From NCBI RefSeq assembly GCF_041886205.1, contig NZ_CP169029.1: 64,000 bases of DNA; one strand, given 5' to 3'. A program made the translations under genes and the position numbers. The notes beneath the pieces were generated by a model, which was given only the letters and a program-made list of their open reading frames with translations, was not told where the DNA came from and made no database searches. Position 1 is the first letter of the stretch. Each line of letters opens with the position of its first letter. The DNA comes from Escherichia coli (GTDB taxonomy: Bacteria > Pseudomonadota > Gammaproteobacteria > Enterobacterales > Enterobacteriaceae). Shown piece after piece: positions 3,233-51,343 of this stretch.

Positions 3233-3525
3233 GTTGTGTGACCTGTTGTTGATTACATCCGATTTTACCGCGTGGGCATGGATGGGGCAAACTCACTCAA
3301 TTTCTGGTTTAAAATGGATACCTGATCCTGAAAGTTTTCTGCCATCCACGATCCGTATACGCGATAAACCCTCTGATCATCAGAGCCCTCATTTGATACA
3401 CATCACCACGTCGGATGTTGTTACGACCGCAGACGCAACAGTAACGTTTGAATAATTTAATCTTTGTTGATGTTTTTATTCATATTCCGGGCTAGGGAAA
3501 TAATCAGGCGTAATTGTGTCACTGG

Positions 3526-3594
3526 AATAGAGGTTTCTTGTGGCGCATGTGGAAGGAGCGTCTACTTTGTCTAATAGAGATTTCTTATGACGCA
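3526..3594. repeat. imperfect 22-bp direct repeat pair in the fliE-yedK junction
   Basis: AATAGAGGTTTCTTGTGGCGCA (3526-3547) and AATAGAGATTTCTTATGACGCA (3573-3594), 19/22 identical, all three differences G/A. Confidence 0.5.
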
Positions 3595-3623
3595 GTATTA
3601 TTGATCAATAGTCTCCTGGCTTA

Positions 3624-4292
3624 TCAAACCGGTTGAATTAACTCCGCTCCCTGGTTTTTGATATTACCCACCGCGCGCGATACCGGGTGCCAGGTGAACT
3701 GGTTTGCTGGCACACAACCACTGGTAGCGATTTCTGAGGCTTCTTTACCGCTAATCTCTTGCCGCATCCATTCCCGCGCAGCTTCTGGCGACAGTACCAG
3801 TGGGCGGCGGTCATGAATATCTACCAGACCCTGGTCTGCTGCTGCAGTGACAATCAAAAATCCTTCGGCTTCGTCACCGCGCTCGAACGGTGTGCTGCCT
3901 ATCGCGGCCAGAAAAACAGGTTGTCCATCAGCACGATAGATAAAATAAGGCTGCTTTTTGTCGCCTTCTTTTTTCCACTCAAACCAGCCATCGGCAAAAC
4001 AGATTGCCCGACCATGTTGCCAGAGCGGTTTAAACATGCGACTGGTTGCGGCAGTTTCTACGCGGGCGTTAATCAGCGGCGGTTTATCCCACCATCCGGG
4101 AGCATATCCCCAGAAAACCGGATCCAGATGAAGGTGTTCATCACGTTCACTGAGCAGTAGGACTTTGGTTCCCGGCGCGACGTTGTATCTGCCAATGGGT
4201 TCGGGATCATAGGGAATATCGCGTTCAATATCTTCCGCGAGAAGCGCAAGGTAATCTTCACGCGTTTGGGATTGGGCAAAGCGTCCACACAT
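3624..4292 (-). CDS. yedK: abasic-site processing protein, SRAP (SOS response-associated peptidase) family
   Basis: 222-aa ORF starting MCGRFAQ..., the N-terminal Cys-2 signature of SRAP/YedK. Confidence 0.9.
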   Translation of the reverse strand: MCGRFAQSQTREDYLALLAEDIERDIPYDPEPIGRYNVAPGTKVLLLSERDEHLHLDPVFWGYAPGWWDKPPLINARVETAATSRMFKPLWQHGRAICFADGWFEWKKEGDKKQPYFIYRADGQPVFLAAIGSTPFERGDEAEGFLIVTAAADQGLVDIHDRRPLVLSPEAAREWMRQEISGKEASEIATSGCVPANQFTWHPVSRAVGNIKNQGAELIQPV

Positions 4293-4366
4293 AGAAACCT
4301 CCTGAGATCATACTGAAAAGAATAGGAGAGGGGGCGGGTAAAATCTATGTGTCAGAGGTAACGATG

Positions 4367-4391
4367 TTCCCGCTGTGGGCCACAGCGGGAA
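4367..4391. terminator. perfect 25-bp palindrome downstream of yedF (possible terminator or protein site)
   Basis: TTCCCGCTGTGG-G-CCACAGCGGGAA; no flanking T tract, so terminator function is uncertain. Confidence 0.35.
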
Positions 4392-4398
4392 TGAGGGA

Positions 4399-4632
4399 TT
4401 ACTTCTGAATTAAATAATGAATGGTCGGCCCGTCTTGCTGAATATCCAGCACCGTATAGCCGTGATTACGCGCATCCAGTGGAATATTATTGATCGACTG
4501 CGGACAGTCGCTCACCACCTCCAGAATTTCCCCTTTTTTTAACTGCGGCATCGCCTCAAGAGTTGCGACTGCCGGATAAGGGCAGGGTTCACCCACCATA
4601 TCAAGGCGGTAATCAGGAACGATATTTTTCAT
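4399..4632 (-). CDS. yedF: TusA-like sulfurtransferase-fold protein YedF
   Basis: 77-aa ORF with CPxP motif (GEPCPYPAV); 4-nt overlap with yedE. Confidence 0.88.
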   Translation of the reverse strand: MKNIVPDYRLDMVGEPCPYPAVATLEAMPQLKKGEILEVVSDCPQSINNIPLDARNHGYTVLDIQQDGPTIHYLIQK

Positions 4633-5834
4633 GCGATCTCCTTAGCAGTCTGCGGTGCCGCACGGCGGAAGAAGCGTTTTTCCCAGCCGATAATCAACAT
4701 CAGCGCAGCAAACAACAGCAAATATGTCACCAGCAGACCACCCATCGGGCCAAAGGTTTTCAGCAGGTTGATTTTGTCCCAGTCGGTGGCCAGCGCCGGA
4801 GCGAAATCATCCCAGTAATACGCCAGAATCGTTGAGCCGATCACGTTGCCCAGACCGACCCACCAGTAGTGCACCTGGCCTTCTACCGCGCGGTACATCC
4901 AGCCGGTTTCGCAGCCGCCTGCCAGCACGATGCCAAAACCAAACAGTAAACCACCAATTACCGCGTTTGGTCCCGCCCACATGATTTTGGGTTCAACACC
5001 TAACTGTACGTAACTGAAGATCCCGATGGCACTCACCGCCATACCAATAATGATTGCTTTCGCCATGTGGGTACGTCCGGTGATCCACATATCGCGGAAC
5101 GCCGAAGTAAAGCAGATTTGCGCACGTTCAATCAGTAAACCAAAGCCGACGCCAAACAGCATTGCCAGCCCCAGTTTGGGTTGGTTCATCGCCGTGAGCA
5201 GCGCCCAGCCCAGCATGCCGAAAAAGACCAGCATCCCGAGACGAAAACGACGCCGCGCCTGATCCGGTTTTTGCGTCAGCGGTGAGGCGGCAGAAACTTT
5301 CTGCATTTTCACGGGAATACGGAAGATGGGCAGCAGGGTAAAGCGCGCGCCAAACCATGAACCAATGGCAGTGGCGATGGCAAAGAACCAGGCATGCAGC
5401 GAGAACTGAGGAATGCCGGTAAAGAACGCCGCCAGGTTACAGCCCATTGCCAGACGCGCGCCAAAACCGGCGATAATACCGCCAATAATGGCCTGCATAA
5501 TGCGGATACGGCTGCGCGGCATGCGTAGTTTGACATTGTTGGCCCACAGCGCTGCAGCAAAGCAGCCGCCAAACATACCGAGGATCATCATCCCGTCGAT
5601 GCGGGTTAATGGCGATCCTTCCAGATGGATAATTTTAAAATAACCCCACTCTTCAGCATGGATGCCGAACAGCTGCAGGAGCTGACCGCCCCAACGGGTA
5701 AATTCACCCGTGACAGCCCAAAAGGTGCCAGTAATGCCAAAATAGTAAGTGGAGAGAATACCCGCCGCGATGACCGCAGGGATGGGTGCCCAGAATTTAA
5801 TCAACCAGGCGTGTTTGAATTGCTGCCATGACAT
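4629..5834 (-). CDS. yedE: YeeE/YedE family inner-membrane transporter (putative selenium/sulfur compound transport)
   Basis: 401-aa hydrophobic polytopic ORF; synteny with yedF. Confidence 0.9.
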   Translation of the reverse strand: MSWQQFKHAWLIKFWAPIPAVIAAGILSTYYFGITGTFWAVTGEFTRWGGQLLQLFGIHAEEWGYFKIIHLEGSPLTRIDGMMILGMFGGCFAAALWANNVKLRMPRSRIRIMQAIIGGIIAGFGARLAMGCNLAAFFTGIPQFSLHAWFFAIATAIGSWFGARFTLLPIFRIPVKMQKVSAASPLTQKPDQARRRFRLGMLVFFGMLGWALLTAMNQPKLGLAMLFGVGFGLLIERAQICFTSAFRDMWITGRTHMAKAIIIGMAVSAIGIFSYVQLGVEPKIMWAGPNAVIGGLLFGFGIVLAGGCETGWMYRAVEGQVHYWWVGLGNVIGSTILAYYWDDFAPALATDWDKINLLKTFGPMGGLLVTYLLLFAALMLIIGWEKRFFRRAAPQTAKEIA

Positions 5835-6017
5835 GAATGTAGCCTCTGAACTCAGAAGGTTTGAAACAAGAGTCGCGAATCATACATCAAGCAAATTTAT
5901 TTTCGGGGTAATAATTCACAAAAATAATAGTTAGATCAAATTTCTCTCTGAACCTGGAAAGGCTGGCGACATCAGGGCTTTAATGCCACAATCCTCTTTT
6001 CTTCTCATGCAGGACGA

Positions 6018-6434
6018 ATGATGAAAAAACTCGCAATTGCAGGCGCGCTCATGTTGCTGGCGGGCTGTGCCGAAGTCGAAAACTATAACAATGTCGTGAA
6101 AACCCCCGCGCCGGACTGGCTGGCGGGCTACTGGCAGACCAAAGGGCCGCAACGTGCGCTGGTCAGTCCGGAAGCGATAGGCAGCCTCATTGTCACTAAA
6201 GAGGGCGATACCCTCGATTGCCGTCAGTGGCAGCGGGTGATTGCCGTACCGGGTAAGTTGACATTGATGTCTGATGATCTCACTAACGTTACCGTAAAAC
6301 GTGAGCTGTACGAGGTTGAGCGTGACGGTAACACCATTGAGTACGATGGTATGACGATGGAGCGTGTGGATCGCCCGACGGCAGAGTGTGCCGCCGCGCT
6401 GGATAAAGCGCCGTTACCGACGCCACTGCCGTAA
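6018..6434 (+). CDS. yedD: lipoprotein YedD
   Basis: 138-aa ORF with lipoprotein signal (MMKKLAIAGALMLLAGC); synteny next to amyA. Confidence 0.8.
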   Translation: MMKKLAIAGALMLLAGCAEVENYNNVVKTPAPDWLAGYWQTKGPQRALVSPEAIGSLIVTKEGDTLDCRQWQRVIAVPGKLTLMSDDLTNVTVKRELYEVERDGNTIEYDGMTMERVDRPTAECAAALDKAPLPTPLP

Positions 6435-25198: not shown

Positions 25199-25368
25199 GA
25201 TAGTGCTCCACAAAGGTTATATTTGTTGCTGTGGCGTCACTATAATTTGTTATTTTATTATTTGCAAAAGGTAAAATATAAACTTCAATTATTAAAAATA
25301 CGAATGGGAATAAAACGCATTACCGCTATTTCTTTAATCAGCGAAGATCCCCTCGCTGATTAAAATAT

Positions 25369-25692: not shown

Positions 25693-25954
25693 GGTCCAGC
25701 CAGAAGAGTAAGAGAAAGCACTATTTTACGCGTTACAGTGCTGCGACAATGGCCGGAAAAGACGCCTGGCAGGCGCTATTTCTTGCCATCTGTAGGTGTC
25801 AGAAATAGGGGGGCTGTTTTTTGATTATCATTTTCATAACATTAAAGGGGTATTTATGTGATTTGCATCACATAAAGATTGATTTTTGTGATGGTTGTCA
25901 TATTATAAGCGCAAAGACAATAACACCTGTATAACAAATAGTCGGAGTGCCGCG

Positions 25955-26041: not shown

Positions 26042-26155
26042 CAAAAAACCTGCTCCGGCAGGTTTTTTTGTGTCCTGATGACGGTGGATGTGACTATCGC
26101 TGAAGATGTGAAGCCGCTACTATAACGGCTTTCAAAATGCTATCAGGAGTTTACG

Positions 26156-28775: not shown

Positions 28776-28844
28776 TTTGCCGGAAAAATTCCCCTCTGCA
28801 TGATGCAGAGGGGGTGTGAACGACCAGTGATTCACGGAGACGTT

Positions 28845-51288: not shown

Positions 51289-51324
51289 ATAAAAAAGCCT
51301 GATCAGGTAACCCTGATCAGGCTT
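51289..51324 (-). terminator. rho-independent terminator downstream of argS
   Basis: AAGCCTGATCAGG-TAAC-CCTGATCAGGCTT hairpin with a T tract on the minus strand. Confidence 0.65.
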
Positions 51325-51343
51325 TACTCTCACGAAAAATCGA

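Follow-up and report, generated by a model that had tools for sequence, protein, structure and literature searches.

A conserved stem-loop without a U-tract between yedF and yedK in Escherichia coli

The palindrome after yedF and its RNA fold

The short region between yedF and yedK in E. coli contains a long palindrome, raising the question of whether it acts as a site in the DNA or as a structure in the RNA and, if the latter, how the yedEF transcript comes to end there. A preliminary description of the window (the whole stretch of 64,000 nucleotides that was analysed) reported a perfect 25-bp palindrome between the two genes with no T tract on either side, considered that it was not a classical intrinsic terminator and offered two options, a protein binding site or a hairpin that stabilises the RNA and divides the yedEF transcript from that of yedK. 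Of 5,426 complete E. coli genomes, 5,377 carry the locus, and the segment in the window is 100% identical to that of strain wlxctx60. The names and order of yedE, yedF and yedK are correct and all three genes lie on the minus strand, with the following layout.

5834..4629, minus strand: yedE coding sequence, first gene of the yedEF operon, overlapping the yedF start by 4 nt
4632..4399, minus strand: yedF coding sequence (77 aa), with the stop codon TAA at 4401..4399
4367..4391, minus strand: RNA stem-loop in the yedF 3′ UTR, identified from its fold, covariation and apex variants in E. coli
4359..4368, minus strand: putative equivalent of the K-12 RNA 3′ terminus, moved to this strain by alignment
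4307..4366, minus strand: C-rich, G-poor tract in the yedK leader, by its composition a candidate rut region
4298..4303, minus strand: yedK Shine-Dalgarno AGGAGG, 5 nt upstream of the ATG at 4292..4290 and invariant in the E. coli sample
4292..3624, minus strand: yedK (SRAP/SOS-response-associated peptidase), co-directional with and downstream of yedEF

Read on the minus strand, the first base of the hairpin is 7 nt past the yedF TAA and its last base 74 nt before the yedK ATG. On the far side of yedK only about 390 bp (window 3233-3623) separate it from fliE in this strain, while K-12 (L001) has yedL and a frameshifted DUF5503 pseudogene between yedK and fliE. The yedK side of the locus is disrupted in some strains, with yedK annotated as truncated and missing its C-terminus in Ecol_276 (L004) and the product label of five more sampled genomes (H21-H26) hinting at a truncated yedK too. 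In SEV4 (L008) IS903B splits yedF and an IS200/IS605 transposase adjoins a truncated yedK. The hairpin is retained in both Ecol_276 and SEV4.

The palindrome, TTCCCGCTGTGG-G-CCACAGCGGGAA, occupies exactly positions 4367-4391 with 12-nt arms that are 100% complementary around one central base, as first described. It is the one match within the window at up to three mismatches and was absent from 100 dinucleotide-preserving shuffles, with perfect inverted repeats having arms of at least 12 nt found at three loci in the 64-kb window vs none in 30 shuffles. The same census listed further long perfect inverted repeats at 25333-25364, 51294-51325, 26043-26068, 28791-28813 and 25853-25876, examples being TTTAATCAGCGA...TCGCTGATTAAA with 12-nt arms and AAAGCCTGATCAGG...CCTGATCAGGCTTT with 14-nt arms; that at 26043 is an A6...T6 hairpin resembling a bidirectional terminator. 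In the yedF-sense RNA the sequence reads UUCCCGCUGUG-GCC-CACAGCGGGAA, forming an 11-bp stem with a 3-nt loop that folds at -18.9 kcal/mol (z = -4.4), with none of 200 shuffles folding as well. A larger predicted fold adds an outer helix (4355-4408, minus strand) pairing CAGAAGUAAU with GUUACCUCUG (UCAGA.GUAAU with GUUAC.UCUGA), which encloses the hairpin and overlaps the yedF stop; its 3′ arm is strain-variable and lies beyond the mapped 3′ end.

A permissive Rfam 15 scan of 3400-6200 returned no matches at E up to 10. The hairpin is single-copy per E. coli genome, its apparent presence in two places being the palindrome read on both strands, and it is without a REP consensus; therefore a REP/BIME or other dispersed repeat was rejected. 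The CTGT-N5-ACAG and TGTG-N3-CACA spacings, compared by eye with the consensus motifs, misfit those of LexA, CRP or FNR sites, which were likewise rejected. The link of yedEF to selenium gave reason to consider a bacterial SECIS element, which was rejected because the codon before the hairpin in E. coli is UAA and closes a conserved YedF of full length (77 aa); in other genera UAA, UAG and UGA are mixed at this position. A 3′-UTR-derived sRNA was also rejected, the yedF 3′ UTR being only about 38 nt long; in Supplementary Data 4 of the TRS paper (PMC10687069) this UTR is not flagged as an outlier.

Conservation of the stem within and beyond E. coli

Exact-word searches among the 5,377 genomes with the locus found the perfect 25-bp form in 3,489 (65%), a G-to-A apex variant, GTGACCCAC, that includes K-12 and O157 in 1,088 (20%), and a C-to-A apex variant, GGCCAAC, giving a 10-bp stem with a 5-nt loop, in 680 (13%). 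These three apex forms cover 5,257 of the 5,377 genomes, leaving by subtraction 120 (2%) with other forms, of which the one genome read, strain N96, differs in the loop only. In the variants read, the change is confined to the apex with at least 10 stem pairs kept in each, and in a nine-strain alignment the ten outer stem pairs are invariant with variation in the apex and the downstream spacer. Since the perfect form accounts for 65% of genomes and the other apices keep the stem, the perfect palindrome is the majority allele and what is conserved is the stem.

Comparison across species extends this. A scan for YedF using one genome per species gave 80 enterobacterial loci, in 71 of which the local hairpin of greatest stability, at -11 kcal/mol or better, begins no more than 14 nt from the yedF stop. 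The ORF that follows yedF is co-directional in 34 and convergent in 44 of the 80 species, with yedK following yedF only in E. coli and two Franconibacter species, where the hairpin between the two genes is unrelated to that of E. coli. The segment past the hairpin is a synteny breakpoint across the Enterobacteriaceae, the next gene differing in most of the 80 species. The hairpins themselves are of different kinds. Enterobacter and Kluyvera have classic terminators with an A-tract, a stem and a T-tract, several Citrobacter have REP-like elements, and a further family with the core CTCCCG...CGGGAG, clearly homologous to the hairpin of E. coli, is shared by S. arizonae, S. diarizonae, many Citrobacter and the other Escherichia species in which it occurs. 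REP-like GCCGGATG...CATCCGGC palindromes lie directly after the yedF stop in about ten Citrobacter species (L009, L010, L014, L015, L020, L022, L023, L028, L034 and L043, at about 1735-1790), and in Citrobacter with such elements a different hairpin-forming element appears to have filled the site.

The alignment of the homologous family takes in 16 sequences, from Escherichia, Citrobacter and Salmonella plus one from Enterobacter, and has no gaps in the hairpin. In these loci, which were picked for showing the homologous hairpin, 96.6% of cells are paired, a share that falls to 38-60% once the partner columns are slid; 5 of the 11 pairs change on both sides (16 cells) and none of 500 shuffles reaches the observed covariation score. 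TCCCG/CGGGA at the core stays the same from genus to genus. G·U cells number 14 and A·C cells 3, so it is the yedF-sense RNA, rather than its complement, that keeps the pairing. The conserved feature is thus the pairing and not the sequence, a pattern that is what selection on an RNA helix would be expected to produce and unlike that of a symmetric DNA operator. The check on conservation set out in the preliminary description is thereby answered, with the stem conserved across both strains and genera.

Published 3′ ends and the fate of the yedEF transcript

A canonical intrinsic terminator combines a GC-rich stem-loop (about 5-14 bp with a short loop) with a U-tract of 7-8 nt directly 3′ of the stem. 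The yedF hairpin has such a stem-loop and lacks the U-tract, with a tail, CAUCGUUACC, that holds 3 U in its first 8 nt and none in the first 2. T/U runs are absent on both sides (minus-strand tail CATCGTTACC, plus-strand tail TGAGGGATTA), as originally noted, and a consensus scan called no terminator-like site at the hairpin. On a d'Aubenton-Carafa-type score, computed with modern folding energies such that values are approximate, the E. coli hairpin scores about -35 (d = -35.8, nT = 0.55), close to the U-less talB 3′ hairpin (-38), with the thrL attenuator at +36. The initial view that the E. coli yedF hairpin is not a classical intrinsic terminator is borne out. Two orthologues, in Citrobacter sp. 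MGH106 (L018, tail TTTTTCAG) and S. diarizonae (L021, tail TTTTTAC), score +22 and +12 and are predicted to be intrinsic terminators; set against about -35 in E. coli, these scores mean that the same stem occurs with and without a U-tract. By sequence comparison, the E. coli hairpin is best read as the U-tract-less version of a terminator hairpin whose U-tract has been kept in some Citrobacter and Salmonella.

In K-12 an RNA 3′ end maps to the hairpin, which answers the 3′-end check that the earlier work had proposed. In the tables of Bar et al. 2023 (PMC10687069) a yedF 3′ terminus at 2009743-2009752 is listed as ‘Primary’, with a dominant position of 2009746 in three libraries of one reanalysed dataset (signal 0.96, adjusted p 1e-73 to 1e-87) and of 2009750 in what is apparently the LB RNAtag-seq sheet (signal 0.63), bearing in mind that termination and processing look alike in RNAtag-seq termini. 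The hairpin is printed there too, folded at -18.9 kcal/mol, its longest stretch of consecutive U being 3. Since the ‘Primary’ class takes only the last gene of an EcoCyc transcription unit (PMC10687069), the label reflects the EcoCyc-based annotation, which puts yedF last in its unit. With the K-12 yedF coding sequence at 2009479-2009712 and the hairpin at 2009720-2009744, the mapped ends fall +2 and +6 after the stem, which by alignment would correspond to window positions 4365 and 4361 in the strain analysed here.

Other datasets are silent at this position. For yedF and yedK the Term-seq tables of Adams et al. 2021 give neither a 3′ end nor a Rho-termination region, and the TERMITe and SMRT-Cappable-seq supplements have no yedE, yedF or yedK entry. 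The sole call in the operon is a significant Rho region inside yedE at K-12 2008838 (Adams et al. 2021, Supplementary file 2), roughly window position 5270 on the minus strand. This suggests premature termination of yedEF transcripts in LB, which may be a reason why the yedF terminus is missing from several 3′-end studies. Its absence from these datasets likely stems from yedEF being poorly expressed in aerobic rich medium, and low expression limits the power of the Adams et al. 2021 data at yedF and yedK. In keeping with a separate yedEF unit, an independent-component study places yedEF without yedK in one operon that is part of an anaerobic iModulon.

The sequence directly past the hairpin is unusual in composition. 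The 60 nt from 4366 to 4307 on the minus strand contain 20 C and 6 G, a C:G ratio at the 99.9th percentile of all 60-nt windows on both strands of the 64-kb window, and the E. coli strains read hardly differ in this tract. Such a C-rich, G-poor tract looks like a Rho loading (rut) site and is regarded here as a candidate for one. It is only about 60 nt long and followed by the strong yedK Shine-Dalgarno, such that translation from this site could counteract Rho on the tract.

Taken together, we favour, with some reserve, a model in which a U-tract-less 3′ stem-loop defines and protects the end of the yedEF mRNA and parts yedEF from yedK, with RNA polymerase mostly passing the hairpin, Rho or a nuclease ending the transcript downstream and exonucleases trimming it back to the stem. 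Because the U-tract is absent, RNA polymerase would mostly not be released at the hairpin and the transcript would run on into the C-rich, G-poor tract, where Rho would load and terminate or the RNA would be cut. PNPase and RNase II would then trim the RNA 3′-to-5′ until blocked by the stem, which would leave the yedEF mRNA with a defined and protected 3′ end and make yedK largely independent of transcription from yedEF. More broadly, the transcript is probably ended either by Rho downstream followed by exonuclease trimming or else by weak intrinsic termination.

The latter is the main rival, in which the hairpin and its degenerate tail CAUCGUU release RNA polymerase without Rho as a leaky intrinsic terminator, giving partial termination between yedF and yedK. 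The mapped end at +6, a U, is at about the distance expected of intrinsic release, the MGH106 and S. diarizonae orthologues are predicted intrinsic terminators and transitional low-U terminators are explicitly discussed by Dar and Sorek (2018; PMC6061677). Set against this are the few and late U residues of the tail, a score some way below zero where the thrL attenuator is strongly positive, the lack of a call in the terminator scan and the fact that the tail itself differs between E. coli strains, being CATCGTTA or TATCGTTG. We regard weak intrinsic release as the less probable of the two.

A variant of the preferred model of trimming to the stem has the hairpin as an intercistronic stabiliser within a yedE-yedF-yedK mRNA, in which RNA polymerase reads on into yedK and an endonuclease cuts downstream of the hairpin, with trimming back to it leaving a stable yedEF segment and differential expression. 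The absent U-tract and a mapped 3′ end compatible with trimming fit this, as do the consensus scan, which found no promoter-like site and thus no convincing sigma-70 promoter between the hairpin and yedK, the variation among strains of a putative -10 element (TATGAT) and the presence of REP elements, the classic stabilisers, at the same position in several Citrobacter. It is nevertheless unlikely, given that the EcoCyc-based annotation ends the transcription unit at yedF, that yedK is outside the yedEF iModulon and that the hairpin is kept in about 78 species in which yedK is not the downstream gene.

An elaboration in which the hairpin and the C-rich tract together act as a conditional attenuator, responsive to either Rho or translation, that sets how much anaerobically induced yedEF transcription reaches the DNA-repair gene yedK seems improbable, and bears on published mutagenesis of this region. 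In Reg-Seq (Ireland et al. 2020; PMC7567609) the mutagenised region ran from -115 to +45 relative to a presumed yedK start at 2009776, and a single ‘repressor-like’ site was reported at -14..+27, attributed in the summary table to TreR by mass spectrometry. If the reference 2009776 is correct this site coincides with the C-rich tract, and were the attenuator reading true the ‘TreR’ site would be the rut site or an anti-Shine-Dalgarno segment. The files of PMC7567609 conflict on the yedK reference, giving 2009776 (45 bp upstream of the ATG) or 2009866 (45 bp inside the gene), and because these two supplementary files disagree the Reg-Seq result is given only moderate weight. In the yedK leader itself the C-rich tract can pair with the Shine-Dalgarno (CCUCC with GGAGG), as seen in the minimum-energy fold, and a 9-nt perfect complement of ACACAUAGA with UCUAUGUGU (4287-4295 with 4344-4352, minus strand) could pair the leader with the start codon. 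A long-range fold hiding the yedK start or Shine-Dalgarno was no more stable than shuffles (z = -0.24).

The other option first offered, a double-stranded DNA operator through which yedK or yedEF would be regulated by a dimeric transcription factor bound to the palindrome, is not supported and is very improbable. A perfect palindrome some 30-55 bp upstream of where yedK is presumed to start, with an invariant TCCCG/CGGGA core, would suit an operator, but the arms change such that RNA pairing stays, the 14 G·U cells disrupt the symmetry of the DNA, variation at the apex and loop is unconstrained and the hairpin is kept beside quite different downstream genes. In addition, the Reg-Seq mutagenesis (PMC7567609) called only the -14..+27 site and none at the hairpin, which lies at -56..-32 on the reference coordinate disputed between the files. 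It is the RNA-stabilising hairpin separating yedEF from yedK that fits the evidence, namely compensatory evolution, the sense-strand bias of G·U pairs and a published 3′ terminus 2-6 nt past the stem. That the element is a functionless relic or a chance palindrome is scarcely credible, since, although yedEF expression is low in standard media and the site is absent from several 3′-end studies, the shuffles put the chance expectation at about zero, the stem is invariant in E. coli where its flanks vary, compensatory changes run across genera and a 3′ end has been mapped at the hairpin.

Significance and comparison with known systems

The yedF 3′ end and its fold are already printed in a published supplementary table and the kind of element is well known, and for these reasons the hairpin itself is judged to be already known. 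The value added is small and lies in the comparison, which shows that across the Enterobacteriaceae a hairpin persists at the yedF stop although the U-tract may be present or absent and the next gene may differ. The hairpin sets a definite 3′ limit to the yedEF operon, which matters little beyond annotation, and this limit would explain the lack of co-regulation of yedK with yedEF. The locus offers a clean evolutionary example in which orthologous hairpins are with a U-tract in some Citrobacter and Salmonella and without one in Escherichia, a switch as predicted by Dar and Sorek. It also cautions against terminator predictors that demand a U-tract and against taking palindromes as operators.

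Among known systems, the closest is that described by Dar and Sorek (2018; PMC6061677), in which the 3′ ends of Rho-dependent E. coli transcripts lie precisely behind stable stem-loops that have no U-tract, with C in excess of G just downstream and with PNPase and RNase II trimming the transcripts to the stem; a change in U content, it was proposed, could switch the terminator class. The yedF hairpin is like this class in being a stable, GC-rich stem-loop of terminator size at the end of an operon without a U-rich tail, in the precise steady-state 3′ end a few nt past the stem in K-12 and in the C>G sequence directly downstream. It differs in that the yedF site is not among the Rho regions of Adams et al. 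2021, with Rho and trimming here being putative. On the features that can be compared, the yedF hairpin behaves like the U-tract-less 3′ protective stem-loops of Rho-dependent transcripts.

With canonical intrinsic terminators, as represented by the MGH106 and S. diarizonae orthologues, it shares its position, a homologous CTCCCG...CGGGAG stem and a similar length and energy, whereas the E. coli copy is without the 7-8 nt U-tract that defines them. The likeness to REP/BIME stabilisers is that of an extragenic palindrome right after a stop codon that is able to block 3′ exonucleases; unlike these, the yedF hairpin occurs once in E. coli and carries no REP consensus.
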